64,000 nucleotides of DNA from Clostridia bacterium (GCA_017625695.1 JAGAKI010000069.1:2228-66227); one strand, 5' to 3'; shown: positions 22,922-64,000, counted from the stretch's first letter. Notes: generated by a model from the letters alone, not told the origin. Numbers and translations: made by a program.

Positions 22922-22963
22922 AACCATATCCTCCACAATTCAACTTTGGAAAAATTATATCAT

Positions 22964-23008
22964 ACTCATAAATTGAGTATTGACATTTACTCAAACATTG
23001 AGTATAAT
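22964..23008 (+). promoter_or_regulatory. consensus promoter TTGACA-17 nt-TATAAT overlapped by two ACTCA-N5-TGAGT palindromes (candidate XRE operators)
   Basis: Operator 1 at 22964-22978, operator 2 at 22989-23003. The -35 is at 22980-22985 and the -10 at 23003-23008. Confidence 0.6.
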
Positions 23009-23041
23009 GAATTTATCATTTATTCTACGGAGGGAAAATTT

Positions 23042-42660: not shown

Positions 42661-42722
42661 TGGTTAATATTACGAAACAGCACCCCAAAAGTGATTCAAC
42701 TTTTGGGGTGCTTTGTTTTGCG

Positions 42723-43658
42723 TTATTTTACAGGAACAAACTGATATTCGGTTACGGTTGCCGCAGGATAGAAAGGAGTACCGTTCAGATAGGTCAGAAC
42801 CAAACTTCCGTCTTTCACATCCCAGCGGTAAATACCGTCCACATCTGTGTGAAGCCCCGTAGCGCCAGGCATTTTGGAATCCTGCGTGCTACCGCCAAAC
42901 TCCATGCGAATTCTACCATCAGATATTACCATCCAATGTCCATGGTATGAACCGGTCATTGTTTCACCTTGGAAGGAATACTCTACTCCGTCAGGCGAAA
43001 TGGATAATTTCAAATCAACAACATCACCGTTGAATTCAGAAACCTTACAAACCCAATCTCCGTAAAAATCCCACTCAACCGTAGGATCCCAACCATTAAA
43101 CTGTGCCATCAGCTCATAGGGAGAAAATTCATAAATCTTTTGTTCAGAATTATCCATAGTTCCGTTCTGCAAAGAAAGACAGGGAACAAATTCTGTCACT
43201 GCATCTCCGCTTTTTGCTACAATCATCAGATTTGGCGTAATGTCGCTGATATTGCCACGAACGAGAATCGGTTGCCCGTTTTTCACGGTGATCAGTTGCT
43301 CACCCTTTTGCAAAACGGATTCCGAAGACATTTCTGCTTTATACACACTCAAAGTAACATGTTCGTCGGCGGGAATCACACAATAAAGCTCATTTCCTTC
43401 GTTCTGTATAAACGACTTTTCGGGAATCTCCTGAAGGAACGGATAGTTTTTTACGTATTCCTGTCCGTCAATAAAATTCTGTACTGCGTCATAATCGCCT
43501 TCCACAGTACCAAGATAAGCCACACCGAACGGTTTTTCGGAACCCTGAATCTGATTTCTGATATCAATAAAGTAGGGATTATGATCCAAAGATGCACCGC
43601 AAGCAGTCAATAAACATAAGCACAACAAGATGCAAAACAGTTTTTTCATCTTTCTCAT
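42723..43658 (-). CDS. lipoprotein, function unknown
   Basis: Start moved to ATG 43658. MRKMKKLFCILLCLCLLTAC carries a lipobox (LTAC). Confidence 0.65.
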   Translation of the reverse strand: MRKMKKLFCILLCLCLLTACGASLDHNPYFIDIRNQIQGSEKPFGVAYLGTVEGDYDAVQNFIDGQEYVKNYPFLQEIPEKSFIQNEGNELYCVIPADEHVTLSVYKAEMSSESVLQKGEQLITVKNGQPILVRGNISDITPNLMIVAKSGDAVTEFVPCLSLQNGTMDNSEQKIYEFSPYELMAQFNGWDPTVEWDFYGDWVCKVSEFNGDVVDLKLSISPDGVEYSFQGETMTGSYHGHWMVISDGRIRMEFGGSTQDSKMPGATGLHTDVDGIYRWDVKDGSLVLTYLNGTPFYPAATVTEYQFVPVK

Positions 43659-43773
43659 AGAATTTTCTCCTTTTTTCTTGTTCGCAGACAAGTATACCAC
43701 AAAATGCGATATTTGTAAAGACATTTCCACAAAAAAACGGCATCTTTTTAGATGCCGTTTTTCATAGTTACTT

Positions 43774-45957
43774 TTAGTATTTTTTCCAGAATTTCATGGA
43801 ATTTTCACATGCTTTTTTCAAATCGCCACTGGGTTTGGTCCGGTAATTTTCGGTAGACAGGGTAAATACATAATCTTGTTCGGTGAAGCTGATATTGGGT
43901 TCCAATCCCTGGTTTTCTCTACCGAAATGTAAAGACAGCCAGGTGAAGTAAGCCATCCAACGCTTTTTATAGTAACCGGAGAGCATACCGTCATATTCAC
44001 GGAATGCATAGTCTCTTAAACGGAACCGTCCGGGTTTACCGCACCAGAGCGTCATCATATTTTTCACGTTATATTCAAAGATTCTCTTTTCGGTATCGTT
44101 TCTGCCGTAGTCTCTTGCACGCTGAATCCATGCACCGAGTAAGGTATGTTCGTTGGTACGAACAACAGCTTCCTGCAGGTCATAGAGTTTTAAGAAACGT
44201 CGTGCTTCTTTTTCAAACTGAGCACGTTTGCCACCTTTATACGCGTTTTTCATTGCTTCAATGATTTCCCAACCGTAATCGGCATTTGCCTGACGGCAGA
44301 GTTCCATCAAATCGAAGCGATAACATTCGTTATCTTTTAATTTATCATATTCTTTCAACATCAGCTGAGTTGCTTTCTGCAGAATTTCAATGGGATACGG
44401 ACTTCCGCCCCGTGATTCAAACCAACCAACGGTACGAACGTTGATGTTGGGGCAGGTACACAGGGAAGAAGATTTACTTGCATTGTATGCAAAACCTTTC
44501 CACAGAGTGTAGATATTTTCAATGACCAGATCATAGGCTTCTTTGATATTTTCGTTGTAGTAACCGTATCTTGCTTTGAAGAACCGTTCCACAAAATCAT
44601 CCTGCTGCAACGGTTTTTCACGGATGGTGTTAGACGCCAGTACATCATAGATGATTTCGTCGGTTTCGATCCCTTCCATTGCCATACCGATACCAACCAT
44701 CATATCGTTTAAAGAACCGGGCTGCTGCAATTCAAAAGGCTGATTCAAAAACTCGGGAATATTACCGGTAAATCTCTGCACGCCACCGAAGTTACCAATC
44801 TGCATATACATATAAGGATAATCACCAAACAGTTCTTTTGCAGTATTTACTACACGGTCGCCGGACAGCAGACCGATTAATACTTCTTCGTGTTTTAACA
44901 CGTTCAGCAATTCCTGTCTGGGATTCCCAACCCAGCCCTGATAGAACCATACATTACCGTCGGAATATTTTTTCATAGTTTCGATATTGGTTTTGGAATA
45001 TTCCGCAATATCAATACCGTCAGTAATACCGCCTTCGTGGAAGGGGTCACCGCCATAGTAGTGAATTTCACCGAAATGTTCTTTGGATTTTCTGTAATAA
45101 ATTTCCGCCATTTTTTCATACAAAGGATCATGCACATCAATCAACGGAGGACGATCACCCTTTTGTGCCAGATTCCAGGTACCCTGTGCATAAATTTTAG
45201 CATTCGGATATTTATCACAGATATTGTTGGGCACTTTTCCGTAGAATGCAGGACGAATCACATCACCGCCAAAATCACGGAGACGTTCGGTCATTTTATT
45301 TGCCAGCATCTTCTGGTCTTCGTACCACCATGCGGGAATATCCCCACCAAATTCGCTGATGTTACCCATAATCTGCCAGGGAAGCATACCTGCTCCGCAG
45401 ATATCGTCATTGGCTTCCTGTGCGGTATAGCCAATTTCCATCAGCATATCTCTCCATACAATTTCGTGACCCAACTGGTTTAACACCAGGTTAATCCCTG
45501 CCAATAACATCCAGTCAATCAATTTTTCATACTGTTCCCATTTCCAATAAATGCAAGTGTAAACATAGGTACAGTAATTCATAAAGTAACGATATAAAAA
45601 TACTGATTTATTTTCAATCACTTCACCAACCACAGGCGGTTTTTTCGGCAAAGCTTTCACATCCTGGGTAATGGGACCGAAAAATACGTGACATTTTTCT
45701 TTCAAATAGGTATTAAACGCAACGGCAGCCGCAACACCGGAGGTTGCTTCAATTACAATCTTACCGTCTTTGTCATACATCTTATATTGATCCATACCGG
45801 TTTTTTCTTCCGCAATCTGTTTGATTACAAAATTCTTACGATAAGTTTTGGAACCAGTAACACGTTCAATCAAATCCAGCACAGCTTCTTCTTTTAAAGT
45901 AGTGCCGAGGTTTTGTTTTTTGACGTTTGCAATTTTGTCGAAAACTTTTTTATCCAT
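43774..45957 (-). CDS. alpha-N-acetylglucosaminidase (GH89, NAGLU-like), no signal peptide
   Basis: Start moved to ATG 45957 behind AGAGAGG. Long collinear resemblance to my recollection of human NAGLU blocks (MVGIGMAMEGIETDEIIY, LLGAWIQRARDYG, MTLWCGKPG...RDYAFREYDGMLSGYYKKRW). Confidence 0.85.
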   Translation of the reverse strand: MDKKVFDKIANVKKQNLGTTLKEEAVLDLIERVTGSKTYRKNFVIKQIAEEKTGMDQYKMYDKDGKIVIEATSGVAAAVAFNTYLKEKCHVFFGPITQDVKALPKKPPVVGEVIENKSVFLYRYFMNYCTYVYTCIYWKWEQYEKLIDWMLLAGINLVLNQLGHEIVWRDMLMEIGYTAQEANDDICGAGMLPWQIMGNISEFGGDIPAWWYEDQKMLANKMTERLRDFGGDVIRPAFYGKVPNNICDKYPNAKIYAQGTWNLAQKGDRPPLIDVHDPLYEKMAEIYYRKSKEHFGEIHYYGGDPFHEGGITDGIDIAEYSKTNIETMKKYSDGNVWFYQGWVGNPRQELLNVLKHEEVLIGLLSGDRVVNTAKELFGDYPYMYMQIGNFGGVQRFTGNIPEFLNQPFELQQPGSLNDMMVGIGMAMEGIETDEIIYDVLASNTIREKPLQQDDFVERFFKARYGYYNENIKEAYDLVIENIYTLWKGFAYNASKSSSLCTCPNINVRTVGWFESRGGSPYPIEILQKATQLMLKEYDKLKDNECYRFDLMELCRQANADYGWEIIEAMKNAYKGGKRAQFEKEARRFLKLYDLQEAVVRTNEHTLLGAWIQRARDYGRNDTEKRIFEYNVKNMMTLWCGKPGRFRLRDYAFREYDGMLSGYYKKRWMAYFTWLSLHFGRENQGLEPNISFTEQDYVFTLSTENYRTKPSGDLKKACENSMKFWKKY

Positions 45958-46113
45958 AACAAGTACCTCTCTTTGCTCCCTATATTGACAGAGCATATTT
46001 GGTTTCATTATAAAGGAAAATACAGAATTTGTAAACCTGAATTTTTGCTTTTCATACCTTGGAAAATATGCTGATTATATCAGCTTTCCGATTCGGTAAC
46101 ATGATACGGATAC

Positions 46114-46150
46114 AAAAAAGCAGAGAGAATTGCTTCTCTCCGCTTTTTTT
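46114..46150. terminator. terminator hairpin downstream of the 930-aa gene
   Basis: GAGAGAA-ttgc-TTCTCTC extended stem, flanked by A6 and T7. Confidence 0.65.
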
Positions 46151-46160
46151 GCATCAATAA

Positions 46161-48953
46161 TTAGTCAACCATTTCAACAAAGATAGAGTTTACGTTCATA
46201 TTTCTGTTGAAGTAAATGGTAGAACCGGCAATTAAGTCCGCTTCGGTTAAAGATACATATTCTACTTTACCATTTTTGAATCTAATGCCTGTAACCTGAC
46301 AGTTGTTACCAATGTGGTAAGCTGCACCGTCATCCAGGAACAGTCTGTAGTCAGTTATCTTTTTCAGAGTACCGATTAAATATCCGGGCATAATGTTCTG
46401 ATGCCACTGTTCGATGGTCATATCAGAACCGTCGGAGCTCTTGGGATATTCTTCCACACCGGTGATATAAATTTCGTTGTTGCAGAACAGTGCACCATCC
46501 ATGAATTCTACCTTCATACCTACTTCCAGTTTATCGGGAGCAGGTTCGTTAGAAGGTCTGTGGTGAGTAACAGTCCAGGAAGGATCAATCGCAATAGAAT
46601 CTAATTCCCATTCGATATCGCCACTGTCTAACACCACTTCATAGTAGTTCTTATCTGCTTCAGCATCATATCTTAAGGTAATGGAATCGATGGTAGCATC
46701 TCTATCACCCTGGTGACGGCGAACCTTATCGGTATTACCGTATAAGAACCAGAAGCTGGGAGTAGATGCGTTGGGTTCTGCAAACATTGCAATATTAACT
46801 CTTAAGGTATCGCTGCTCATATTGAAGGTACCGTGTGCTAATAATTCATTATAAGATTTTTCCATAACACCTAACTGACCATCAATGTTGGTTAAAACGA
46901 CAAATCTTTCGTTACGAATGTAGAACAACTGAGTGGAAGCTAAGCTGCTGCCGATACCGGTAGTAATACCATTGGTAGTGGTAGTAGGTAAGTAAATTGC
47001 ACGATAATCACCGATAAAGTGGTCTAAGGGAATGTTAATTGCAGGCAGACAAGGAACAGTCTGAGTCACAATTTCCTTAGTAGTAGAATCCATATAGCTT
47101 ACATCATGTTCTTCACCGAATAAGAGATAGTAATCAGGTTCAGAAATCTGAGTGATTACACCTTCGTCGTTAACAGTAAACTTAAAGAGCTTATCAGTTG
47201 CATTCATCTTGTCGCTCCATCTCATTGCATTTGCTGCAATGCTGGATGCGGAAGAGAACACGGTAGTGATATCGCTTACCGGAGTTGCCGGATTGTCAAT
47301 GAGTTTAGAAGCCGGGAAATCTACAGGCAGAGTAACAACCGCTTCTTCTACATCAGGGTAAATTTTCTGAACTTTAATTTTGATATCCTCAAAGCCCTTC
47401 TGGGAAGAACCTACGATATAAGCAGTAAACTCATTTTTCGCATTCAGTTCACCGTTTGCTTTGATGTAACGAACGTTGCCGAAGATATCTACATAAGCCA
47501 TAATCTGTGTTTCATAGATACGATCGAAGTTATTTTCTACATAATCTGTACCGTTTTCGGAAACATAAATATCTTCTTTGGTGGGATAGAAATGTCTACC
47601 GATTTCAATTTCGTTATCCGCCATACTTCCGAAATTGCCGGCAATTGTTTTTTCGGAAACTACGATTACCAACAGATCATCACTCTGATAATAGTAGAAT
47701 AAACTTCCGGGTTTGATCTGAGTACGGTCTGTGCTTCTGCCATCGATGATAACCATAATGTCATCATATTCACCGACTCTTTTCAGTCTGCCGGCAGATT
47801 CACCTTTTACGTAAGCAACAAAACTGTTGTTCACTTCAGTTACCATACCTGCTTCCTGAAGATTCCAGGTTTCGATAAAGGTAACTTTGTTATTGATTAA
47901 TACGATTTTTGCATATTTTCCGGCTAATTTTACAGGAGTTCTTACGATTTCACCGTTGTAACTTACTTTTGCACCCGCTGCAATTCTGTATTCTTCTTCA
48001 TCACGTTTGAGTTCAATGTTATCAACCAGATTCAGTGCATAAGCATTGTTCGGATTGGTATCATTGTTTACGCTGTAAATTACATCGTAGAATACTTCTA
48101 CATTGGTCTGGGGAGTAATGTAGATAATCATACCATCTTTATCTGCCCAAAGTTCAACGGGAATATTGTAGTAGAAGTTCAGGTCCACTTTACCGTTGGT
48201 CAAAAAGTCATAATCGTTACCAACAGTCAGCAGTTCCGGATTTGCACCGGAAACATTTTTGGTAATGTTTACTTTTGCACTCTGTTTCTGATTGTTTACT
48301 TCAATAATAGAACCGTAGTAACGGGAAATTCCGAAATACTGAGACAGTACAGTCTTTTTATTACCGGAATCTTCCAGATTTGCAGTACCGTTACTATCAT
48401 AGCTATAGTTAAATTCGGTAATATCTGCAGTTAACAGATTGTAAATTAATTTACGGAACTGTTTCACGGTAACAGTATCATAAGTGCTAACAGCAACATC
48501 TTTGTACAGACGCAGCTCGGTTACGGTTTTCATATTACCTGCTTCGCCGCCGCCATTTACAGCTGCAATGGTTTCATAAGACAGTAATTTAATTACTGCA
48601 GCGTTGAAATCATGGAAGCTGATGGGGTCGTTGGGGCAGAACATATTGCCTTCGCTAGGTAAGAAACCGTTGATGGTTGCATAGTAGACATAACCGGAGT
48701 ATTCGTCATCAGCCGGAACATCCACATAAGCAGTTTCTCTGGGTTCCATTTCTTCGTTGCTTAAAATACTGGAAATGGTGTATGCAAATTCTTTACGAGT
48801 TACTAAATTGTCGGAATCTGCAGAACAAGATAATGGCATAATGCTGAAGTTGGAAATGACTTCACTTACGCCGGACGAAGCTGCAGAAACAATCTGGAAG
48901 GAGCCAAGAATCAGCGCCAGAACCAGAAATAAAATTGTACCTTTTCTCATCAT
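46161..48953 (-). CDS. large secreted protein with degenerate N-terminal SLH-like repeats; remainder unknown, beta-rich
   Basis: 930 aa with signal peptide MMRKGTILFLVLALILGSFQIVSA. SLH-like VTRKEFAYTISSIL / YVDVPADDEYSGYVYYATINGFL. Its start overlaps the upstream stop as ATGA. Confidence 0.65.
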   Translation of the reverse strand: MMRKGTILFLVLALILGSFQIVSAASSGVSEVISNFSIMPLSCSADSDNLVTRKEFAYTISSILSNEEMEPRETAYVDVPADDEYSGYVYYATINGFLPSEGNMFCPNDPISFHDFNAAVIKLLSYETIAAVNGGGEAGNMKTVTELRLYKDVAVSTYDTVTVKQFRKLIYNLLTADITEFNYSYDSNGTANLEDSGNKKTVLSQYFGISRYYGSIIEVNNQKQSAKVNITKNVSGANPELLTVGNDYDFLTNGKVDLNFYYNIPVELWADKDGMIIYITPQTNVEVFYDVIYSVNNDTNPNNAYALNLVDNIELKRDEEEYRIAAGAKVSYNGEIVRTPVKLAGKYAKIVLINNKVTFIETWNLQEAGMVTEVNNSFVAYVKGESAGRLKRVGEYDDIMVIIDGRSTDRTQIKPGSLFYYYQSDDLLVIVVSEKTIAGNFGSMADNEIEIGRHFYPTKEDIYVSENGTDYVENNFDRIYETQIMAYVDIFGNVRYIKANGELNAKNEFTAYIVGSSQKGFEDIKIKVQKIYPDVEEAVVTLPVDFPASKLIDNPATPVSDITTVFSSASSIAANAMRWSDKMNATDKLFKFTVNDEGVITQISEPDYYLLFGEEHDVSYMDSTTKEIVTQTVPCLPAINIPLDHFIGDYRAIYLPTTTTNGITTGIGSSLASTQLFYIRNERFVVLTNIDGQLGVMEKSYNELLAHGTFNMSSDTLRVNIAMFAEPNASTPSFWFLYGNTDKVRRHQGDRDATIDSITLRYDAEADKNYYEVVLDSGDIEWELDSIAIDPSWTVTHHRPSNEPAPDKLEVGMKVEFMDGALFCNNEIYITGVEEYPKSSDGSDMTIEQWHQNIMPGYLIGTLKKITDYRLFLDDGAAYHIGNNCQVTGIRFKNGKVEYVSLTEADLIAGSTIYFNRNMNVNSIFVEMVD

Positions 48954-51900
48954 ATACCTAACACCTCCATCATAACATAAATTACTTTTGCGGTCTGTGC
49001 TCTGGTTGCGTTTGCGATAGGAGCAAAGGTGTTTTCGCCCATACCATTAATAACGCCAACTTTTTCTAATGATAAAACAGCTGCTTTTGCATAATCTGCA
49101 ATGGCATCAGCATCTGCAAATTCTGCTTTACCTTCAGCAAGGGTAATACCTAATCTCTGGAAGGTTCTGTAAACCATAACAGCTAAATCCTGACGGGTAA
49201 TCTGCTGACCTAAGCCAAAGGTTCCATCCGGATTTCCTTTGATAATGCCTAAATTCTGAGCAGTTGCAATGTAAGAGGTTGCCCAATGGTCTTCAGCTAC
49301 ATCGGTCAGATTGGATACTGCTTTTGCATCGTGTGAACCAATTGCAGTTACAATCATTTTTACAACTTCTTCACGGGTGATATTGTCCATCGGACGGAAT
49401 TTTCTTTCGTCGTTTTTGGAAACGATGCCTTTACCAACTAAGGTATGAACCATATCTTTAGCCCAGGAAGCTTCTTCCATATCGTCGAAGAAATAGCCGG
49501 ACTGTTTATCGTCTTCTTCTTCCACTTTTTCCTTCGGAGGAGCAACATATCCGCCACCGCCGGAGCTGCCGGAAGGTCTGCTTGCAGGTTTCTCAGGTTT
49601 CTGACGAATGGTTGCAGTAATGCTGCCACCGGTTACTGAGATGGGTAAATCAACAAAAATTTTATTGTTCTGTTCATCTTTCAGACCGGTATCAAAAGTA
49701 TAAATAACAGATGCTTCTACATCAATGTCATGAGTTCCGATCACAGATGCCTGCAGAGCGATTTTACCAACTTCATCGTAGGAAATGGTTTCATCATATG
49801 CAAAGCCGATGGTGAAGGTTGCAGTATCTCCGTCGATAACAACTTCGTTGGAAATTGCATCTTCTGCTACTGCTTCTGCGTTTTCAAGCAGGTCTGCTTC
49901 TTCAGTAGTTACGACTACTTCAATTGCTTTTACTTTGGTCTGTGCATTCTGGAAGTCAACCGGAATTGCAATTTCACCTGCATAGTATGCAGAGGTAATT
50001 GCGTCAGAAAGGTCCAGACTGGTAGGAGTGATACCGTTGGTTTCTAAAATCCATGCATCCAGTAAGGTTGCAATTCTTTCTAAGAACGCTTCTTCAGAAG
50101 TGCTGGGACCGTTTGTTCTGGTATCTTCTGCAATTTTATCAGAGAAAGAAGTTTTCTTAGTGTCGGTGTTTACTAAGTTTAATTTGTCGGAAGCGATACC
50201 GATTAACTCACAAGCATCCGCTTGATTTAAGAAGTTGGATTTAATGTAAGAACCGGTAGTTGCCTGGTTCATCTGTTCTAATTTCAGCATTTTGCCATAG
50301 AAAGGAGCAACCTCTCTCACAGCTGCAAAATCTTTTCCTTCAAAGTGAGCTAAGAATAAGTCTTCATTTGCTAAGCTGTCGCAATCTGCTGCATAATCAG
50401 GAACTAATAAAACTTCGCCGTATTCTTCAAAGATAGCATATACAGCATCGGAAGTGGTTGCATCTTCAAATAAGCCGATAATTCTTAATTCTTCTTCTTC
50501 CGATACATAACTTACAACTGCGGGTGTAGTTGCACCATATTCAGTGGTAACAGTGTAAGTGTAAGCACCTGCAGCTGTACCGTCTGCGATGTTGAATTCT
50601 ACAGTAAATGCACCGTCATCACCGGAGATTACAGTTTCAACTTCGTCACCTTCAGGAGAGGTAACAGTTACAGTTCTGCCTTTGATACCGTGACCGGTAG
50701 AACCCAATGCGGTACCTTTGATGGTTACCGCTTCACGGTAAGATTCCACTTCGGAAACAACAACAGCATCGATTCCTTCATCAGCGGAATCATCACCGGT
50801 AGTGAAGGTATAGGTTCTGTCATCCAATGCTTCTGCATCGTTGATACCCTGTAAATTGGTAACTTCTAACAGATATTCAGTGCCGTAAGACAGAGTTTCC
50901 AAGAAAGAAACAATGACTTTGGTTCCGTCAACATCAACTGCAACAGGAATTTCAGCACCGTCTGCGGTTAAGGTAGCTTCTACACCTGCCATCATAGTGT
51001 CGTTGAAGGTAATGGTTAAGTTATCGGTACCTCTTGTAACAGTTTCACCGTCAACGAAAGATTCGCTTTCAACGCCGGTTGCGTAAGGAGATACGTATTC
51101 CACTTTTACCCAAGCTAAACTGTAGTTAGAGAAACCATCTAAGGTTAAAGTATATTCGCCTTCCGTTAAGGAGAAGATACCAATTTCGCTGTAACCGTAG
51201 GTAGTTACTTCTACATCCACATCATTTTCTTTCACGGTTTTGGTAATTCTGGATACGGTTGCAGTTTTCACATCGTCGCCAAAATCAGCAGAAACAGTGG
51301 AAGAGCCTTCGGTAATACCCATTACGGAAACTTTGTATTTACCGTCTGCCGGAATATTTACGGGGAAAGTCAGGGGTGTGTTGCTTACATCAGCCTGATT
51401 GTAACCGTCATTAAAAATAACGGTTAAATCCCCGATTTCATTTGCGGATGCGATAGGAGCCACTAAAGCTGCTACGGTAGCATCTACAGATTCATCCAAG
51501 GTTAAAGTCATGGTTCTGAAGTTTACATATGAGGTAGATTTGTGATCTACATACACATAGTTGGTGCCTTCTTCCAAATAAATGTAACCTAAGTTAGTTG
51601 CATTTACAAAAGTATTCTGGTTCGCAGTTTTGGGTAAATCAGTTTCTAAAATACTCTTTTCGGTACGAACATAGAATTTTGCGCTGGGGGTTGCACCAAC
51701 AGAAGCATCCACATCAACAGAATAGTATCCTGCAGTGTCTGCGGTAACTTCAAATCTTACCCATTCACCTGCTTTCATATTCAAAGAAGCACGACTTATA
51801 GGGTTAGACCATACATCCAGGGGAGCGTAGGCTCTGTTGTTGTTTGTGGTACTGTCCAATGATCCAGATGTGGTGTCAAAGTACAGTTCACCTTGTCTGT

Positions 51901-52042: not shown

Positions 52043-52258
52043 AAGCAATCCTCCTTATCTTTTTGCTTGTAATTTGAGATATATAATAAATTTTTATTAG
52101 CAAAATCAGCAATATATAGAAATATAAAATATTTATTTTCAAATTCGGGGTTTCCCGGGCAGAACCTGCATGGGTTCTGCCCGAAAAACATTTGGTAATC
52201 AAATCAATCCTAAGAGGTCATATGCCTTCTTCGTAAGGTTTACTCACAAAGTAAGGAC

Positions 52259-58000: not shown

Positions 58001-58061
58001 GTTTTGAACCCTCCTTAAGATGTAAAAACACAGTAGATTGCGCGGGGTTTTATTTTTTTGT

Positions 58062-58097
58062 TTCCGGAATATGCCAATTCTTTGGCATATTCCGGAA
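58062..58097. other. perfect 16-bp inverted repeat hairpin between paralogs 1 and 2
   Basis: TTCCGGAATATGCCAA-ttct-TTGGCATATTCCGGAA. T-runs flank it on the plus strand only. Confidence 0.8.
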
Positions 58098-58111
58098 TAT
58101 TTTTATTGCAA

Positions 58112-61100
58112 TTATTCGTCTGCGGGAACGTCCAGCATACGCATGGTTCTCCAGGACGGATAGTAATCCACGTTCTGAAGTTCCGTCTGATTGTCAACAC
58201 CTGCTTCAGACATAATTCTCTGTGCAGATAAAGACCAGCTGGTAACATTTACGTTATTGTTTTCCATGGTCACAGCATTGCTTGCGAAACCGTAAGAACC
58301 GTTTGCAGAAGGCATCGGACCGTCAGTGTGGTTATAAGAACCGTAACAGTCTGCAATGTCAACATATCTTCTTGCAAACAACCAACGGTCGTCGGAAGCT
58401 TTTGCATCGGTGAACACGTTATCGCTGAAGTACAGATCCTGAGTTGCCTGGTCAAGGTACAGACCGCTCTTTAACAGATTACCCGGGTCGATAAAGTAGT
58501 TATCGTTAATCTGGTTGTAGCCCTGCAAACCAACGGTGTAGATATGAGAACCATCATTCATAGTCTGCATTACATCTTCAATCTTATTGTAAGCCACAAC
58601 GTTGTTTCCGCAATCGTCGGGTAATGCTGCACCCCAGCCCCAACCAACGGAAATACCGGTGTAGGGCATATCTGCGATGTCATTGTGATGAACTTTGGAA
58701 TCACCGGTGTAGTACATTGCTATTGCGGTGGTACCTAAGAATTCCTGTGCACAACGGCGGAAGATGTTGTTGTCTACTTCAATATGGGTAGAACGCTGTT
58801 TATCGGTAGACATATTCACATCGTGTAAGAAGTTTCCGACTACAACACCGGTACCGGAAATATCGTGGAAGGAGCTTCCGGTTACACGGCAGTTGGTGTC
58901 CCCTTCTTCAAAGAGAACTGCACTGGAGCCTAAGTTTGCAAATTCACAGTTTTTAAATACTACGCTATCAGCATAGTTTAAGGTAACCTGTGCAGGGAAC
59001 ATATAGCTTCCGTACCAGATTTCGCCGCCTAAACGGAGTTCGTCTGCCTGGTTGAAAGCTGCACCGTTGGTGGTAGCATCATCATAAGCACCGTGCTGGA
59101 AGGAAATACCGTCAAATTCGATGTTTGATACCTTGTTGGTAGCGCTAACACCGGTAATAGTCATCAGACCATCGGTTACTGCACAGAAGGTTTCTGCAGT
59201 GTTCATGTTTTCTTCCGGATAAGGATAGTAATACATCTTACGATTGGTTTTATCGAAGAAGAATTCACCGGGTTCATCTAAAAGATCCATAGAGTTTTCT
59301 AAGTAGAAGGAACCGGTAGGCTGAATGGTAGTGGTGGTAGCATCATCATTTAAGAAGATGTGGTATCTGGGGAACGGAATGTATACATATGCGTATTCAT
59401 AACCGTAGTAATCAGCATAGACTACTTTTTCCACAGGGAAACGATGGTTTGCCCAGTTTTTCTGGAATACTACCTGAAGTCTGGTATCGTCAGCTAAGGT
59501 TCTGGGGAAGTCGGTATCCCACTGTTCAATATTAACCAGGAAGCCGTCTGCAACATGCACATCATTTACCGGACTTTCGGGAGTAATGACATCATCAGCA
59601 ATATACCAGCCGCTGCTTCGTGCCATAGTTGCCTGATAGCCGTTTACATATAATGCTCTGGTTTCACGGGTGGTGGTAGATGCTACCCAGTAATCTTCGC
59701 CGGAAACCTTAGACCATTTACCGGTTAAGGGTTCCCCACCGGATAAAATGGGACGGTTGTTGGGATCCTCTGCTTTGATGATAACTTTGTAACCGTTCAT
59801 ACCGCCCATGTTCTGGTCAATTGCGATGGTGGTATTGCTGCGGTAGGTACCGGGAGCAATGTGCACCACGATATCGCCGGTCATGGTGGTATTGTATGCT
59901 TTAACCTTGGTTAATGCCTGAGCGAGGGTTGCCACGGGAGTTTCCGGAGTCAGACCGTCGTTGGAGGATTTACCGGTCGTTGCTACATAAATATCTTTAT
60001 AAACACCAACAGAATAGTAGGGTTTTGCTTCTTCCATATCGGAGAACACCATAATTTTTACCTGGCTCTGGGTGGTTAAACCGGTTAAGGTACAGGTAAC
60101 GGTGGTGGAGGTGCTCTTTAAGGTGTTTAAGTTGCCTGCCATTTTGCTTCCCTGATATTCTGCCACAACAATGGTAGAATTTGCAGGCATATTGGAGGTG
60201 TTGATAATCAGTCTTGCAGTGCCGGTAGGTAAGCTGCTTACCGGAGTGTTGGAAGAATTGTATAACTTCACAGTGGGGCTGGAAGCCTCGGTGGAAATGA
60301 TGGAGTTATAAGTGGAAAGCATATCATCTAAAGATTCAAAATCCTTGCCAACCATGGGCCAGAAGGACATCTGGGGATAGAAGATATTTGCAGTATCATT
60401 TACCACGTTGATGCCAAGCAGGGAGCCATATTCCACTAAAAGATTGTATGCTTCCTGAGAGGTGGTGGCATCTTTGAAGCCATATAACAGGTGATAGGTT
60501 CTGCTGCTGGTGTTTTCCAGACGGAAATCATCAAAGTAGAACACATCACAGAAATAGGTAAACTGAAGGGTATGAGTACCTGCAGTTAAATTCATGGAGT
60601 AGATTTTTTCAGTCTGCAGCGGATAGGAATCTTCTTTATGCAGATTGAAATGCATGGTTTCGTAAGACAAATAGGTTTCGTCAACGGTGATGTCTACGGA
60701 AACGTCTTTCCATGCAGCACCTCTTAAATACAGGTTATACACACCGGTATCAGGAACGGTAATGGTATAAGTAGAGGTGGATTCGTTGGTAGCGGTAATA
60801 ACTGTCGCACCGCCGTGAGATCCCTGAGTGGTACCGCTCTGAGAGGTGTAGCTTTCTGCTTCGGTAATAATCATATATTCAGAATCGGTGATGTTGGGAG
60901 TTGCAGTGGGAGTGGGAGTTACCACAGGTTCTGCCGGCATGGAAGATACCGGTTTTACAAAGCTGATATAAGACATGGAGTCATATCCGGTGGCATTTAA
61001 ATAACCGTAATCTATGGTAGATAAAATCACCGAATTAGCACCAATATTTTTTAAGGTAAAGGTATTTGCACCTTCGGTAAAGTACATGGGCTGGTCAATC

Positions 61101-62710
61101 TGAACACCATCCTGATTGGTCCAGCCGGTGGCGGTCAGATTAAAGTCCGCATAGTAATCACCTGCGATCATACGAACGGTGGTGGGACTGCTGATAGAAG
61201 CAACTTCCAGCTGAACACCGTAAACACCGCTGTAAGGTGCGTTGAAAGTGTAAGTTCCCCATTCACCGTTCGCCATGGTGAAACTATCGCCGTTGATATG
61301 GTTGCTCTGTGCGTAATATTCACCGCTGAAGCTGGTTGCGGGCACTTCACCGCTGTAACCGCCAAATGCAGGTTCTAATTTTACGTTACCAATCCAGGTG
61401 GTTACCTGAGTGGGAGTAGAAGTGGGAGTAGGAGTTGCGGTAGGAGTAGCAGTAGGTGCTACGGTAGGAGTCGGAGTTGCGGTGGGAGTTGCAGTAGGTG
61501 CCACGGTAGGAGTCGGAGTCGGGGTGGGAGCAACTGCAAATTTTACAAATTCCAGATAATCCAGAGTTTTGTCTGCACCGGAAGCATCCAGTCTTCCGAA
61601 GTCGATGGAAGAAACGGTTGCATTGTAATCACCGCGTAATTCTAATTTAAAGGTGTTAGTGCCTTCTTTTAAGTAGATAGGCTGGTCCTGTAAACAACCG
61701 GAGCTCCATCCCATGGTGGTCACGGCATATTCTGCACCGTATCCATCTTCAGTGGTCACATACCAGTTTACGGGAGTACCGTTGGACCATTCGGTGCGGA
61801 TCTGCATTGCATACACACCGGTATAAGGCATATCCACAGTGATATATGCCCAGTCCCCTTTTACCATGGTAAAGGCACCGTTTGCAGCAAAGGGAGCACC
61901 GGAGGTTGCCTGATAGTCAGTACCTGCAACAGCAGCATCACCGTTACGGATTGCACCTTTAATGTTTTCCACGGTAGAAGTATAACCGTTTTTATAAGTC
62001 TCCGGCAAATCCCCATAGGCACCGGGCCAGGTTAAGGGAGCCTCGGTGGGAGTGGGAGTTTCGGTAGGTTCGGGAGTTTCAGTCGGTTCCGGAGTTGCGG
62101 TAGGTTCCGGTAAATCAGCAGTCTGTTTTACCAGAGGCAGGAAATCCAAAGAAGATTCTGCGCCCTGAGCATCCAGACGGCCTAAGTCCCAAGCACCTAA
62201 CATCGCATTGCCGGGACCAATACATTCAATGGTAATGATATTGGTACCTTCCTCCAGATAGAGGGGCTGGTCCTGTAAACAACCGGAGCTCCAGCTGGTG
62301 TCGGTAATGCTGTAGTCTGCATAGTAGCCATGTTCGGTGGTTACACGGTAGCCGGTAGAAGAACCGCTATACCAGTCGGTGCGAAGCTGGAATGCATACA
62401 CGCCGGTATAGGGCACTGTGAGTTCATATTTGCCCCAGTTCCCCACAACCATAACGAACTCGCCGTTGGCGCCAAAGGGAGAGGATGAGGTTGCAACATA
62501 GTCGGTGCCGGCTACGGAAGATCCGTCAGCACCGCTTTTGGTAAAAGTAGTCATAGCGTAATGTTCGCCCACATAACCGTTGGTATAACCGGCTAAATCG
62601 CCGAATTTACCGGTCCAGGTGGGAGCCGCACTTACGGGGAATGTCATCATACTGCCAATCATCGCAATCAGCAGGCAGATAGATAGCAGCTTTCTGAATT
62701 CGATTTTCAA
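58112..62710 (-). CDS. giant secreted protein: 3 x about 170-190-aa CBM-like repeats with PT linkers + shared central and beta-helix modules (paralog 2)
   Basis: Start moved to TTG 62710, 7 nt after AAGGAGGA, giving the signal peptide (M)KIEFRKLLSICLLIAMIGSMMTFPVSA. The C-terminal about 630 aa is collinear with paralog 1. Confidence 0.8.
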   Translation of the reverse strand: MKIEFRKLLSICLLIAMIGSMMTFPVSAAPTWTGKFGDLAGYTNGYVGEHYAMTTFTKSGADGSSVAGTDYVATSSSPFGANGEFVMVVGNWGKYELTVPYTGVYAFQLRTDWYSGSSTGYRVTTEHGYYADYSITDTSWSSGCLQDQPLYLEEGTNIITIECIGPGNAMLGAWDLGRLDAQGAESSLDFLPLVKQTADLPEPTATPEPTETPEPTETPTPTEAPLTWPGAYGDLPETYKNGYTSTVENIKGAIRNGDAAVAGTDYQATSGAPFAANGAFTMVKGDWAYITVDMPYTGVYAMQIRTEWSNGTPVNWYVTTEDGYGAEYAVTTMGWSSGCLQDQPIYLKEGTNTFKLELRGDYNATVSSIDFGRLDASGADKTLDYLEFVKFAVAPTPTPTPTVAPTATPTATPTPTVAPTATPTATPTPTSTPTQVTTWIGNVKLEPAFGGYSGEVPATSFSGEYYAQSNHINGDSFTMANGEWGTYTFNAPYSGVYGVQLEVASISSPTTVRMIAGDYYADFNLTATGWTNQDGVQIDQPMYFTEGANTFTLKNIGANSVILSTIDYGYLNATGYDSMSYISFVKPVSSMPAEPVVTPTPTATPNITDSEYMIITEAESYTSQSGTTQGSHGGATVITATNESTSTYTITVPDTGVYNLYLRGAAWKDVSVDITVDETYLSYETMHFNLHKEDSYPLQTEKIYSMNLTAGTHTLQFTYFCDVFYFDDFRLENTSSRTYHLLYGFKDATTSQEAYNLLVEYGSLLGINVVNDTANIFYPQMSFWPMVGKDFESLDDMLSTYNSIISTEASSPTVKLYNSSNTPVSSLPTGTARLIINTSNMPANSTIVVAEYQGSKMAGNLNTLKSTSTTVTCTLTGLTTQSQVKIMVFSDMEEAKPYYSVGVYKDIYVATTGKSSNDGLTPETPVATLAQALTKVKAYNTTMTGDIVVHIAPGTYRSNTTIAIDQNMGGMNGYKVIIKAEDPNNRPILSGGEPLTGKWSKVSGEDYWVASTTTRETRALYVNGYQATMARSSGWYIADDVITPESPVNDVHVADGFLVNIEQWDTDFPRTLADDTRLQVVFQKNWANHRFPVEKVVYADYYGYEYAYVYIPFPRYHIFLNDDATTTTIQPTGSFYLENSMDLLDEPGEFFFDKTNRKMYYYPYPEENMNTAETFCAVTDGLMTITGVSATNKVSNIEFDGISFQHGAYDDATTNGAAFNQADELRLGGEIWYGSYMFPAQVTLNYADSVVFKNCEFANLGSSAVLFEEGDTNCRVTGSSFHDISGTGVVVGNFLHDVNMSTDKQRSTHIEVDNNIFRRCAQEFLGTTAIAMYYTGDSKVHHNDIADMPYTGISVGWGWGAALPDDCGNNVVAYNKIEDVMQTMNDGSHIYTVGLQGYNQINDNYFIDPGNLLKSGLYLDQATQDLYFSDNVFTDAKASDDRWLFARRYVDIADCYGSYNHTDGPMPSANGSYGFASNAVTMENNNVNVTSWSLSAQRIMSEAGVDNQTELQNVDYYPSWRTMRMLDVPADE
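60944..62626 (-). repeat. intragenic array of three diverged CBM-like repeats separated by Pro/Thr linkers
   Basis: Recurring PYTGVYA(F/M)Q(L/I)RT..., SSGCLQDQP(L/I)YL(E/K)EGTN and GRLDA(Q/S)GA blocks. Confidence 0.8.
61430..61513 (-). repeat. 42-bp x 2 tandem duplication inside the PT linker
   Basis: GGAGTTGCGGT(A/G)GGAGT(A/T)GCAGTAGGTGC(T/C)ACGGTAGGAGTC occurs twice back to back, encoding PTVAPTATPTATPT x 2. Confidence 0.9.
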
Positions 62711-62788
62711 TGATAAGTCCTCCTTCAAACGATAATCGTTTGTATTTTATATGCCGGACAAAGATTAGCAGGTCCGGACAGTTCAGTA

Positions 62789-64000
62789 CTAATCAATAAT
62801 TGCATCTGCAGGAAGGTTAAACATGGGAAGAGTACGCCAGGAAGGATAGTAACTCACGTCTGCTACTCTGGTCTTGTCTTCTACACCTGCTTCTGCCATA
62901 ATTCTCTGCGCTGTCGTTTTCCAGGATGTCTGATTGATATAGTTGGTTGCGTAGGTTACACCGGAGGTATCCAAGGGGAAGGTAGCGAATGATTTGGGAT
63001 TACCACCATCAGTATGGTTATATGCGACATAGTTATCATTTAAGTTGACACGTCTTCTTGCAAAGAGCCAAAAGTCACCAGACTGATTTGCCTGCTGTAT
63101 CACGTTGTCAGTCATAGAAATATAACCGGTTGCTTCGTCAAAGTAAACACCGCCACGACGATAATTACCCGGATCAATTAAGTAGTTGTCGTTTAAGTGC
63201 ATGTTCTTCTGGTCGCCTAAAGTGTAAATCTGTGCACCGTCGTCTAACACCTGACAAACCTCTTCAATCTTATTGTAGGAAACAATGTGATTGCCGGTGT
63301 CGTTAGGTTCATAGTAACCCCAGCCCCAACCGATGGAAATACCGGTGTAAGGCAGATATTTGATATCGTTGTGATGAACGTTTGCAGAATCCACATAGTA
63401 AACTGCAACTGCAGGCAGATTCATAAATTCCTGCGCCACACGGCGGAAAATGTTGTTTCCGATTTCAATGTTCTTACAACGGACACCGCCGCCGTAGTTA
63501 CTGTTGTGCAAGTAGTTGGAAACGGAGACGCCTCCGCCGGAGATATCGCGGAAATCACAATTGATAACCTTGGAGTTGGTAACACCTTCCACCAGATACA
63601 TTGCGCTGGAGCCAAGCTCTGCAAATTCACAACCGTCAAACACCAAGGAATCTGCGTAGCTTGCTACAATCTGTGCATGCATCAAATGCTGAGAATAACC
63701 GGTTTCGGTACCGCGGCGGAGTTCGTCTGCCTGATTGTATGCTGCACCATAGGTGGTGGCTTCATCCCAGGCACCGTGACGGAAAGAAACATTCTTAAAT
63801 TCCAGATTTTCCACACGGTTGGAGATATTAGCACCCTGAATGTTCAATAAACCGTCGGTTACTGCACAGTAGGTTTCTGCAGTGGTCATATCCTCATTGG
63901 CATAAGGATAATAATACATTTTGCGGTTGGCTTTGTCAAAATAGAATTCGCCGGGTCTGTCTAAGAGCGCCATTGCGTTTTCCAAGTAGAAGCCTCTGCC
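62789..64000 (-). CDS. beta-helix C-terminal domain of a third paralog (5' part outside window)
   Basis: The reading frame stays open to the window edge (...GRGFYLENAMALLDRPGEFYFDKANRKMYYYPY...). Collinear with the C-terminal 400 aa of paralogs 1 and 2. Confidence 0.8.
   Translation of the reverse strand, partial: GRGFYLENAMALLDRPGEFYFDKANRKMYYYPYANEDMTTAETYCAVTDGLLNIQGANISNRVENLEFKNVSFRHGAWDEATTYGAAYNQADELRRGTETGYSQHLMHAQIVASYADSLVFDGCEFAELGSSAMYLVEGVTNSKVINCDFRDISGGGVSVSNYLHNSNYGGGVRCKNIEIGNNIFRRVAQEFMNLPAVAVYYVDSANVHHNDIKYLPYTGISIGWGWGYYEPNDTGNHIVSYNKIEEVCQVLDDGAQIYTLGDQKNMHLNDNYLIDPGNYRRGGVYFDEATGYISMTDNVIQQANQSGDFWLFARRRVNLNDNYVAYNHTDGGNPKSFATFPLDTSGVTYATNYINQTSWKTTAQRIMAEAGVEDKTRVADVSYYPSWRTLPMFNLPADAIID

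Follow-up and report, generated by a model that had tools for sequence, protein, structure and literature searches.

A probable GH141-rich polysaccharide-utilisation locus with a coupled SLH protein pair in uncultured Clostridia

The window analysed here, a 64-kb stretch of DNA, comes from an uncultured Clostridia lineage of ruminant gastrointestinal metagenomes. An ORF scan reveals seven consecutive minus-strand ORFs at 42723–64000, bearing out an initial annotation that had described an all-minus-strand surface locus of at least 21 kb with seven co-oriented genes. ORFs and domain matches likewise confirm the genes it listed: a lipoprotein (g1), a GH89 enzyme (g2), a pair made up of a 930-aa protein (g3) and a protein of about 1030 aa with three SLH repeats (g4), and three giants (g5, g6 and g7). 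Co-orientation by itself is weak evidence; a housekeeping run at 25.5–35.7 kb also lies entirely on the minus strand. Housekeeping genes form the left flank of the locus, the flanking genes in the window include PBP1A and PAP2, and the first hairpin below marks the left boundary.

42679–42712, no single strand: bidirectional terminator-like hairpin, stem of 14 bp, separating g1 from the convergent nitroreductase gene
42723–43730 (ORF; true start 43658), minus: g1, lipoprotein of 311 aa with a signal peptide and the lipobox LLTAC
43691–43719, minus: g1 promoter-like site, TTTACA-17-TG-TATACT, 10/12 consensus matches plus the TG extension (a consensus match only)
43731–43757, minus: intrinsic terminator after GH89 in the intergenic sequence, CGGCATC-loop-GATGCCG then T7
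43774–46008 (ORF; called 43774–45957), minus: g2, GH89 alpha-N-acetylglucosaminidase of 727 aa (Pfam NAGLU_N, NAGLU and NAGLU_C)
46007–46035, minus: near-consensus sigma-70 promoter for GH89, TTTACA-17-TATAAT, 11/12 matches
46114–46143, minus: intrinsic terminator at the end of the g4-g3 bicistron, T6 following a GC-rich hairpin
46161–48953, minus: g3, secreted protein of 930 aa (ORF; AlphaFold model, pLDDT 76)
48429–48836, minus: g3 N-terminal divergent SLH-trimer domain, aa ~40–175 (Foldseek of the AlphaFold model)
48950–52048, minus: g4, secreted protein of 1032 aa (ORF, Pfam), with Ig-like domains Big_5 and a weak Big_6 (Pfam)
48953–49501, minus: g4 C-terminal SLH repeats, three, aa ~850–1032 (Pfam; Sap SLH structure matches)
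51521–51874, minus: g4 N-terminal distant CBM35-like module, aa 59–176 (module profile)
52043–52258, minus: g5/g4 intergenic region of 216 nt, GC-rich hairpin then AT-rich promoter-like stretch
52259–58000, minus: g5, secreted GH141 protein of 1913 aa (Pfam GH141_M and Beta_helix)
52457–54139, minus: g5 C-terminal GH141 catalytic region, ~aa 1288–1848, Q336, D523 and D564 equivalents conserved
55112–57613, minus: g5 CBM35-like modules, four, aa 130–963, with Pro/Thr linkers between (module profile matches)
58062–58097, no strand assigned: hairpin with a perfect 16-bp stem in the g6/g5 gap; minus-strand transcript lacks a U-tract
58112–62728 (ORF, 1538 aa; called 58112–62710, 1532 aa), minus: g6, secreted GH141 protein
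58313–59995, minus: g6 GH141 domain, aa 912–1472 (PDB 5mqp match)
60893–62641, minus: g6 CBM35-like modules, three, aa 30–612 in ORF numbering (module profile)
62789–64000, continuing off-window, minus: g7, C-terminal 403 aa of a secreted GH141 protein (GH141_M)

The three giants are predicted to be secreted GH141 glycoside hydrolases with CBM arrays. All three carry GH141_M above the Pfam gathering threshold together with Beta_helix, and the g6 alignment covers BT_1002 in full (PDB 5mqp; E=2e-38, spanning chain residues 26–604 of 624), so the statement that no additional glycoside hydrolase was recognisable in the locus falls away. By alignment, D523, D564 and Q336 of BT_1002 are conserved in the giants, their orthologues, an SLH-anchored paralogue and remote GH141s, the catalytic Asp pair being present in the GH141 domains of all three giants. 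N-terminal to GH141 lie three to four CBM35/CBM6-like modules joined by Pro/Thr linkers; their profile matches the CBM35 region of the CITase 5x7g (E=3e-8) and, more weakly, the GH31 enzyme 5x7o (a region taken as CBM35) and a CBM6, and proteins related to the giants carry Pfam CBM_6 or CBM_35. On the source contig g7 has a full length of 1667 aa, its off-window part including three strong CBM35-like modules. A conserved tail of about 65 aa follows GH141 in each giant, and no SLH, LPXTG or other anchor was found in them. Given these GH141 domains and CBM arrays, a reading of the giants as structural 'beta-helix' proteins is not supported.

BT_1002 of Bacteroides thetaiotaomicron is the founding GH141, an alpha-L-fucosidase from a rhamnogalacturonan-II PUL, and the giants' catalytic region is homologous to it over its full length, GH141 insertion domain included. 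Whereas BT_1002 is a single-domain enzyme of about 620 aa in a Gram-negative Sus-type PUL, GH141 here sits at the end of proteins of 1300–1900 aa, behind the CBM35-like modules, with four to five paralogues per locus and linkage to GH89 and GH123, neither of which contributes to the degradation of RG-II. Xyn141E (Cthe_2195) of Acetivibrio thermocellus is cellulosomal and attached through a dockerin, a module that the giants lack. This enzyme and the Wf141 endo-fucanases of Wenyingzhuangia fucanilytica are endo-acting GH141s on polymers, and clostridial GH141s are extracellular (PMC5593877, PMC12786026).

The identity of g2 as a GH89 enzyme holds, with the three NAGLU domains matching at E=3e-83, 1.5e-53 and 7e-13. 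The glutamates aligned with E483 and E601 of CpGH89, which we take to be the catalytic residues of that Clostridium perfringens enzyme, are both conserved. The two share the three-domain GH89 core (PDB 2VC9 and 4A4A; E=3e-102), but CpGH89 is a large secreted multimodular protein with CBM32 that acts on gastric mucin, whereas g2 is a bare 727-aa core. In none of five genomes do the GH89 N-termini, compared across five orthologues, carry a signal peptide or hydrophobic leader; the enzyme is therefore predicted to be cytoplasmic and to act inside the cell, contrary to an extracellular placement. GH89 is very highly conserved in related loci, and it still points, as first read, to a glycan bearing alpha-GlcNAc. 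A signal peptide or lipobox is found on every locus protein other than GH89 and the off-window GH123. The lipoprotein g1, one of a family of 20 proteins in Clostridia MAGs, has no Pfam or NCBIfam match; its AlphaFold model (pLDDT 85) combines an N-terminal alpha/beta domain with a C-terminal lipocalin-like 8-stranded beta-barrel, for which Foldseek returns only marginal matches (ToxS/VtrC/HphA barrels).

As first proposed, the two SLH-type proteins are a coupled pair, with the g4 stop overlapping the g3 start by 4 nt (ATGA). Sap of Bacillus anthracis is an S-layer protein in which an N-terminal SLH trimer is followed by a long beta-domain array. The SLH trimers of Sap and of SpaA (Paenibacillus alvei) are matched by g4 in sequence and by g3 in predicted fold: residues ~40–175 of g3 superimpose on both in Foldseek (probability 1.0, TM to target 0.57–0.65), and in the model an array of small beta-barrel domains follows, the architecture of an S-layer protein. 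In its model g3 thus appears SLH-like at the fold level only, being 13–19% identical to these trimers with a TRxE-type motif solely in the first of three repeats. It has no Pfam match at E<=1, and no enzyme fold was detected in its predicted structure. T52 and R53 of the TR(K/R)(E/D) motif are invariant in the g3 family, which comprises 21 close proteins and, more remotely, 1333 cluster representatives, some with Pfam-detectable SLH. The claim that the giants share modules with the SLH proteins stands weakly for g4, where residues 59–176 score 18 bits against the giants' CBM35-like module (at most 7.7 bits in 200 shuffles; reproduced in four orthologues), and fails for g3, which shares nothing with them.

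Intergenic signals suggest that the locus is not one operon, with terminators and promoters separating g4-g3, GH89 and g1. The terminator position after g4-g3 has a hairpin and T-tract in 4/4 orthologous loci (dG -14 to -19 kcal/mol), the GH89 promoter motif recurs upstream of GH89 in L007–L010, and an equivalent of the GH89 terminator is present in L007 and L009. Downstream of that terminator lies the g1 promoter-like site, with a similar site in L009. The g4-g3 transcription unit probably starts within 52043–52258, a region in which a promoter scan found no high-scoring promoter; the hairpin at 58062–58097 may serve in transcript processing or stabilisation, or in partial termination. With these conserved signals the region falls into at least four transcription units, and a single co-regulated unit is not supported.

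Comparison with related genomes, mostly from ruminant hindgut, shows that the genes are co-conserved, their order kept despite flanking housekeeping proteins only 45–79% identical. In eight related loci the order is lipoprotein / GH141-CBM6-SLH / (u2) / u1 / GH141 giants, then g4-g3-GH89-g1, with the GH141-CBM6-SLH enzyme and the ~630-aa lipoprotein on the same strand as the array; one relative, L010 plus L014 on a single contig, has the u2-u1 arrangement of the window's source contig. Farther upstream, 7/8 loci encode a pair of ABC sugar permeases along with a divergent GH123 that has no signal peptide; the eighth, L014, begins within the lipoprotein gene. The initial annotation was right that no transporter or regulator lies inside 42.7–64 kb, but the contrast it drew with Gram-positive PULs does not hold: the window truncates the locus, and its edge probably explains why no transporter appears. 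The window's own contig could be read to ~9 kb beyond the window, a span without transporter genes; judging from the relatives' gene order, this genome most likely encodes the transporter a short way outside the window. The clade's locus yielded no regulator, and Pfam, NCBIfam and PDB profile searches with the ~630-aa lipoprotein detected no similarity to a solute-binding family.

More distant contexts extend the comparison. In L023, a remote version of the cassette, a permease gene is accompanied by one for a lipoprotein (46% identity to that of the clade), by GH141, g4-like and g3-like genes, and by an AraC-type response regulator with a histidine kinase. The g4 and g3 proteins could be general envelope or S-layer structural proteins with no part in glycan use, sitting beside a GH141 cluster, the locus being a juxtaposition of independently transcribed units. 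The architecture of g3 suits this, as do the terminator and probable promoter of g4-g3 itself, a remote homologue in Caloranaerobacter azorensis whose neighbours are other SLH envelope proteins and no GH, and the fact that g4, g3 and g1 are the fastest-diverging genes of the region, as expected of exposed envelope proteins. Yet the block stays intact across three different downstream flanks; the GH141/g4-like/g3-like adjacency, with its 4-nt overlap, recurs in 3/5 distant contexts (L022, L023, L026) at g3 identity of only ~25%; the g4 CBM-like module is related to those of the neighbouring enzymes; and the L025 pair lies in a sugar-utilisation context (AraC, a GH63-like gene, an SBP). We regard this reading as unlikely.

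That same adjacency, the translational coupling of two wall-anchored proteins, the lack of anchors on the giants and their common tail would also suit the initial proposal of an S-layer-anchored scaffold, not based on cohesin and dockerin, that docks the giants into a multi-enzyme complex. However, the one module shared between g4 and the giants is of a carbohydrate-binding type (CBM35/6-like), and domain searches turned up neither a cohesin or dockerin nor any other repeated docking module. Since a GH141 paralogue has an SLH anchor of its own, anchoring is direct where needed. Giant number varies between genomes against an invariable single g4-g3 pair, and related loci share 40–60% identity in the exposed parts of g4 and g3 but 66–85% in the giants, a much faster divergence that is a poor fit to a conserved docking interface. 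A docking scaffold is thus very unlikely.

All parts taken together, we consider it moderately probable that a Gram-positive polysaccharide-utilisation locus of ~45 kb is present, of which this region forms the downstream half; the initial description of a cell-surface glycan-processing locus is supported. From what was directly observed (domain identities, catalytic residues, signal peptides, the relatives' gene order and transcription signals) we infer four steps. Four to five secreted GH141 hydrolases, targeted by CBM35/CBM6-like arrays on Pro/Thr linkers and in one paralogue wall-anchored by its own SLH, would cut a complex glycan extracellularly. Retention of the glycan, or of fragments of it, on the cell surface would fall to wall-anchored g4-g3 and to two CBM-array proteins encoded off-window, u1 and u2: g4 has a C-terminal SLH anchor, an Ig-like stalk and a distal CBM-like module, while the co-translated g3 has its SLH-like anchor at the N-terminus, followed by an array of beta-barrels. 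Oligosaccharides would then enter by an ABC importer at the upstream end of the locus (two CUT1-type permeases and the large lipoprotein as putative binding protein), and cytoplasmic GH89 and GH123 would remove terminal alpha-GlcNAc and beta-GalNAc. The likely substrate is a HexNAc-bearing glycan, with a host mucin-type O-glycan as the leading guess. Counting against this explanation, GH89 and g1 have their own promoters and GH89 is absent from the remote cassettes, so its link to GH141 could be positional only. The GH141 activities on record (alpha-L-fucosidase, endo-xylanase, endo-fucanase) also would not obviously yield alpha-GlcNAc- or beta-GalNAc-terminated oligosaccharides.

The glycan might instead be the cell's own, the locus remodelling or recycling a secondary cell-wall polymer, capsule or S-layer glycan. 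SLH anchors put several components on the wall polymer, and secondary cell-wall polymers of SLH-bearing Firmicutes contain alpha-GlcNAc (as in Bacillus anthracis), which would suit a cytoplasmic GH89 that is highly conserved and has a strong, constitutive-looking promoter. Cell-wall genes lie nearby as well, PBP1A and PAP2 in the window and, in L010, FemAB, MurT and a GT4 + pyruvyl-transferase fusion, but these flanking genes are not conserved across genomes. Nutrient acquisition is what multiple CBM arrays and a set of four to five diverged GH141 paralogues typically indicate, and linkage to a sugar ABC importer and, in L023, to the sugar-sensing pair points the same way. We give envelope recycling little chance of being correct.

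Known systems resemble parts of the proposed utilisation locus. Paenibacillus sp. JDR-2 likewise combines SLH-anchored, CBM-bearing extracellular enzymes with adjacent ABC transport and with trimming enzymes that lack signal peptides and act in the cytoplasm (PMC4765114), but uses GH10, GH16 and GH13 in place of GH141, GH89 and GH123; here most enzymes are unanchored and a dedicated non-catalytic SLH pair is present. The Gram-positive PULs of Roseburia and Eubacterium rectale share clustered GHs with an ABC transporter and CBMs replacing Sus-like binding proteins, and their definition requires a regulator (PMC5320581), whereas none is seen in the clade's locus, which is of unusual size and includes very long genes as well as genes for SLH-anchored accessory proteins. 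Limousia mucinolysomes also degrade glycans with surface multi-enzyme systems, GH89 included, in animal-gut Clostridia, some species having GH123 among their non-dockerin CAZymes, but they are built on cohesin/dockerin scaffolds; GH141 and SLH go unmentioned in the main text of that paper (PMC12997984).

With GH89 and GH123 both lacking signal peptides, the locus fits the Gram-positive pattern of depolymerisation outside, ABC import and cytoplasmic trimming. Its most interesting part is the uncharacterised g4-g3 pair.

The locus at 42723–64000 is probably a window-truncated, unusually GH141-rich Gram-positive glycan-utilization locus, and its most interesting feature is a conserved, uncharacterized pair of SLH proteins (g4-g3) that accompanies GH141. 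An ORF scan reproduces the seven consecutive minus-strand genes described in the initial annotation:

42723–43730 (true start 43658), minus strand: g1, lipoprotein of 311 aa with signal peptide and lipobox
43774–46008, minus strand: g2, GH89 with three NAGLU domains
46161–48953, minus strand: g3, SLH-like protein of 930 aa, its ATG overlapping the g4 stop by 4 nt
48950–52048, minus strand: g4, protein of 1032 aa with three Pfam SLH repeats and Ig-like domains
next upstream, minus strand: g5, giant of 1913 aa
next upstream, minus strand: g6, giant of 1538 aa
to the window end, minus strand: g7, giant cut by the edge, 1667 aa on the source contigs

Co-orientation by itself says little, because every gene of a housekeeping run at 25.5–35.7 kb lies on the minus strand as well. 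The left neighbors of the locus are housekeeping genes (nitroreductase, PAP2, deformylase, PBP1A, DnaG, RpoD), as is the remainder of the window. Elsewhere in the window are a 6S (SsrS) RNA gene (5139–5330, plus strand; full-length match to Rfam RF00013, 83 bits) and, at 22946–25345 (plus strand), a gene whose 799-aa product combines fibronectin type III repeats with a weak match to a purple-acid-phosphatase N-terminal domain, and which is surrounded by a low-GC stretch at 22–26 kb (GC 0.37–0.40 vs ∼0.43–0.46 elsewhere). Cumulative GC skew over 48000–64000 has its minimum at ∼48–52 kb and climbs through the giants, a rise that probably reflects their C-rich Thr/Pro/Ala coding strand, not a replication feature.

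Beyond GH89, the initial annotation had seen no recognizable glycoside hydrolase in the locus. This is wrong, because all three giants carry the GH141 insertion domain (GH141_M, Pfam PF21231), with scores of 35.4 bits for g5, 33.5 for g6, and 33.1–36.7 for g7 against a gathering cut-off of 27, together with a Pfam Beta_helix match and the catalytic residues. Residues 912–1472 of g6 cover residues 26–604 of the 624-residue chain of the GH141 reference BT_1002 (PDB 5MQP; E = 2e-38), a homology that spans the whole right-handed parallel beta-helix catalytic domain. Activity of BT1002 requires D523 and D564, and Q336 sits in the active site (PMC12786026); equivalents of all three are kept in g5–g7, in four orthologues, in an SLH-anchored paralogue, and in two remote GH141 proteins. 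The giants are paralogues with 47–55% identity across their C-terminal ∼400–1070 residues. They are, as far as their sequences can tell, typical secreted multimodular CAZymes with a predicted GH141 catalytic region. Non-catalytic adhesins are ruled out by the retention of the catalytic residues in all paralogues and orthologues, and sortase anchoring by the absence of an LPXTG motif.

The N-terminal halves of the giants comprise three or four modules of ∼150–190 aa with Pro/Thr linkers between them. Searched against the PDB, a profile of this module matches the CBM35 region of the cycloisomaltooligosaccharide glucanotransferase 5x7g (E = 3e-8) and, more weakly, a CBM6 and the GH31 enzyme 5x7o, in a region that we take to be a CBM35. 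It is also matched by PDB 8zvk (AaBglC), on which a literature search found nothing, and Pfam CBM_6 or CBM_35 is present in relatives of the giants. Residues ∼405–741 of g7 (∼6130–7140 of L003, the source-contig locus carrying g7 and u1, off-window) hold a near-identical tandem copy of module and linker, which indicates an apparently recent module duplication. In metagenomic homologues (P0057, P0058) of the module of u1, a protein encoded off-window upstream of g7, the fusion partners are a GDSL lipase/esterase and an alkaline phosphatase, so it is a mobile targeting module beyond GH141.

The window sequence is found on several metagenome contigs of ∼50–95 kb from ruminant gastrointestinal samples, on which two further genes lie upstream of g7 on the same strand: u1 (1141 aa), made up for the most part of CBM-like modules, and u2 (1450 aa), whose last 300 aa are common to u1. 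This u2-u1 arrangement is shared by one relative (L010 and L014, one contig). A u1-family profile finds nothing in the PDB, and neither u1 nor u2 can therefore be assigned a catalytic domain. We inspected the region upstream of the u1 orthologue in eight related loci (L011, L012/L021, L013, L014, L015, L016, L019, and L020), which belong to uncultured Clostridia known from metagenome-assembled genomes, with roe deer and water deer among the sources. Directly upstream of u1 (or u2) in all eight is a GH141 protein of 1307–1324 aa with a CBM6 and an SLH anchor of its own, and upstream of it a lipoprotein of 628–649 aa without detectable family. Further upstream, seven of the eight encode two CUT1-type ABC permeases on the same strand and a divergent GH123; L014 begins inside the lipoprotein gene, its upstream end lying out of sight. 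The ∼630-aa lipoprotein finds nothing by phmmer against the PDB, by a profile of seven homologues against the PDB, by Pfam with all members, or by NCBIfam, so the name ‘solute-binding protein’ would be given by position.

It is correct, as the initial annotation had it, that no transporter lies in the window and no regulator in its part from 42.7 to 64 kb, but the contrast it drew with polysaccharide utilization loci (PULs) finds no support, given the permeases upstream in seven of the eight relatives' loci. Because those loci continue upstream to ABC permeases, the absence is most likely a window-edge effect; the genome behind the window very probably has the same upstream genes, to judge by synteny with its relatives. 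When a transporter seems to be missing at the edge of a window, this is not to be taken for a property of the locus. Set against the Roseburia-based definition of a Gram-positive PUL (PMC5320581), the window supplies the enzymes (three GH141 genes plus GH89), and the transporter is found in the relatives only. No regulator occurs between GH123 and g1 in the loci of this clade; in a remote cassette, L023, genes for an AraC response regulator and for a histidine kinase come after the g4-like/g3-like pair. In Paenibacillus sp. JDR-2, CBM-bearing and partly SLH-anchored enzymes yield oligosaccharides at the wall, which are taken up by ABC import and processed by cytoplasmic exo-glycosidases (PMC4765114); the secreted enzymes and the signal-peptide-free GH89 and GH123 of these loci would fit the same scheme. 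Overall, what was first observed is largely correct, and its interpretation is supported in part.

By sequence, g2 belongs to GH89, with NAGLU_N, NAGLU, and NAGLU_C at 48.7, 279.9, and 182.6 bits (cut-offs 28.3, 25.5, and 25; E-values of the three domains, from strongest to weakest, 3e-83, 1.5e-53, and 7e-13) and a match to the reference enzyme CpGH89 (PDB 2vc9) at E = 3e-102. Both catalytic glutamates of CpGH89, which we take to be E483 and E601, align with glutamates in g2, in the motifs DPFHEGG and M-E-G (mapped with a chain offset of 25). A signal peptide is absent from GH89 and GH123 in every genome examined, and all other proteins of the locus carry a signal peptide or lipobox. In g1, confirmed as a lipoprotein, the N-terminus MRKMKKLFCILLCLCLLTAC is a signal peptide with a lipobox, [LVI][ASTVI][GAS]C, at its end; Cys20 is invariant across 20 homologues. 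In a metagenome-assembled genome from water-buffalo colon (L018, 501–12823), ∼7 kb with unrelated minus-strand genes separates the gene for a g1-like lipoprotein from that for a u2-like protein, so u2 and g1 are able to occur outside the main array.

The block is co-conserved in relatives: the order GH141 giants, g4, g3, GH89, g1 is kept in four other genomes (L007–L010), between which flanking housekeeping proteins share only 45–79% identity. Downstream, the window, L007, and L008 continue into nitroreductase and PAP2, L009 into FBPase and rpsB, and L010, which has no g1, into a GT4 plus pyruvyl-transferase fusion and MurT. The components of the block diverge between genomes to very unequal extents, with identities of 66–85% for the GH141 giants and u1, 44–63% for g3, 43–52% for g4, and 49–62% for g1; within g3 and g4, the SLH anchors are 56–76% and the exposed parts 40–60% identical. 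GH89 (window 43774–45957 vs L007–L010) is 88–97% identical, well above the flanking housekeeping proteins, and has a near-consensus promoter of its own throughout. Such conservation suggests that GH89 is under very strong constraint or was exchanged recently, and its role may be separate from that of the GH141 genes.

A canonical hairpin with T-tract follows g3, and the consensus match TTTACA-17-TATAAT precedes GH89; this terminator and promoter are present in four of four orthologous loci. A second terminator and another consensus match, TTTACA-17-TG-TATACT, stand ahead of g1, and the g5/g4 boundary has a hairpin and an AT-rich stretch. A single operon is ruled out by the terminators and promoters conserved between units, and the consensus matches argue for at least four transcription units, of which g4-g3 would be a bicistron. 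An Rfam scan of the locus finds no riboswitch or leader RNA. In the g6/g5 gap, a perfect palindromic hairpin with a 16-bp stem (58062–58097) has its T-run on the plus strand only, which disqualifies it as a canonical terminator of genes on the minus strand. Off-window, the 350-nt intergenic region between u1 and g7 contains a T-arm-like sequence, GGTTCGATTCCC (L003, 4590–4660); a tRNA is ruled out, as ARAGORN finds none.

In the SLH pair, g4 carries, behind a signal peptide, a distal module, then Ig-like domains and a set of three SLH repeats, which match Pfam SLH in three stretches (E = 9e-27) and the SLH region of Sap (E = 6e-11), and is non-catalytic as far as can be detected. The ‘SLH-like’ label given to g3 has turned out to be right at the level of fold. 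By sequence, g3 lacks detectable SLH repeats and matches nothing in Pfam even at E ≤ 1, nor do NCBIfam (searched, like Pfam at E ≤ 1, with g1 as well, to the same null result) or the PDB contain a match. An AlphaFold model built from 18 homologues (pLDDT 76) has a helical N-terminal domain for which Foldseek returns the SpaA and Sap SLH trimers at probability 1.0 (TM to target 0.57–0.65). The label is right because this predicted fold matches SLH trimers; remote family members have SLH repeats detectable by Pfam. Of the TRAE-type motifs through which SLH proteins would bind pyruvylated secondary cell-wall polymer, g3 keeps one, TR(K/R)(E/D), in its first repeat only, with T52 and R53 invariant in the family. 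The remainder of the model is an array of small beta-barrels without an enzyme match. SLH domains bind a pyruvylated wall polymer. In L010 (15634–21678), the locus adjoins a 733-aa fusion of GT4 with a CsaB-like polysaccharide pyruvyl-transferase, FemAB, and MurT/GatD.

The pair extends beyond this clade. An exhaustive g3-family profile search returned 1333 cluster representatives at E ≤ 1e-3, of which 145 pass E ≤ 1e-30; they are mostly ∼830–870 aa and align to g3 residues 1 to ∼610. Five remote contexts of g3-like proteins are as follows:

Gene contexts of remote g3-like proteins
L022: GH141, phosphodiesterase-like, CBM35 protein, g4-like, g3-like (4-nt overlap), GH4
L023: ABC permease, 610-aa lipoprotein (46% identical to that of the clade), GH141-CBM35, g4-like, g3-like (4-nt overlap), AraC response regulator, histidine kinase
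L024 (Caloranaerobacter azorensis DSM 13643): homologue annotated ‘S-layer homology domain-containing protein’, among SLH envelope proteins; no GH
L025: large SLH protein, then g3-like; AraC, GH63-like gene, SBP; GH141 absent
L026: GH141, g4-like, g3-like (4-nt overlap); MsmK-type ATPase nearby

We count the GH141/g4-like/g3-like trio as a recurrent cassette because the g4-like proteins of L022 and L023 are homologous to g4 well past its SLH region (28–32% identity over 730–850 aa). GH89 and g1 are clade-specific additions to this trio, and the wider g3 family is a general class of SLH-anchored envelope proteins. The broad family alignment was too diverse for a metagenome scan and a narrower one gave a single locus, so the frequency of the association with GH141 is read from the five remote contexts. 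We found no paper connecting GH141 with SLH pairs.

The initial annotation went further and proposed modules common to the giants and the SLH proteins, the latter acting as a scaffold. All-against-all BLASTP and phmmer find no module common to the giants and g3 or g4. Against a profile of the giants' repeated module built without g4, residues 59–176 of g4 score 18.4 bits and the equivalent position in four orthologues 10–17 bits, compared with 7.7 bits for the best of 200 shuffled sequences, so that sharing holds weakly for g4, whose segment is a remote relative of the CBM-like module, and by none of the three methods for g3. That g4 and g3 dock the giants through a protein–protein system other than cohesin/dockerin is, in our judgment, highly improbable. 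It would agree with giants that have no anchor of their own and with a pair that consistently adjoins GH141, but nothing supporting docking was found: the seven proteins contain no Cohesin or Dockerin (Pfam E ≤ 0.01; NCBIfam), the modules that a cellulosome-like system would carry on its anchored scaffold and its enzymes, nor any other repeated docking module, and the module common to g4 and the giants is of the carbohydrate-binding type. Moreover, one GH141 paralogue has a direct anchor, genomes differ in how many giants they encode, and sequence divergence is faster in the exposed parts of g4 and g3 than in the enzymes. Rather doubtful, though less so, is a broader proposal in which g4-g3, being translationally coupled, would be a dedicated, undescribed SLH-anchored surface module of two proteins that co-evolved with GH141 in distant Clostridia. 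It might serve as a Gram-positive counterpart of Sus-type surface glycan-binding proteins, capturing glycan and passing on its fragments for ABC import; alternatively, the unanchored giants could dock on it. The GH141-rich loci with this pair would then target a HexNAc polysaccharide that has no known degradation pathway.

[quoted passage not shown] GH123 is a family of beta-N-acetylgalactosaminidases (PMC12997984), and GH141 includes an alpha-L-fucosidase, an endo-xylanase, and endo-fucanases (PMC12786026). For a gut organism, our leading guess at the substrate is a host glycan that bears fucose and HexNAc, for example mucin O-glycan; it may instead be a microbial glycan, a plant glycan, or the organism's own envelope polymer. 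GH141 is among the least characterized glycoside hydrolase families: a 2025 paper counted two characterized enzymes among more than 1000 sequences and added four (PMC12786026). With its four to five diverged GH141 paralogues, its GH89 and GH123 of predicted cytoplasmic location, and its probable ABC importer, the conserved locus offers a defined enzyme set and a genomic setting in which new GH141 specificity may be sought. It also suggests that uncultured Clostridia of the ruminant hindgut make use of such a glycan. The trio of GH141, g4-like, and g3-like genes, which recurs, is a candidate accessory system, and the g3 family, which is without annotation, could explain how substrate is retained at the wall in Gram-positive bacteria.
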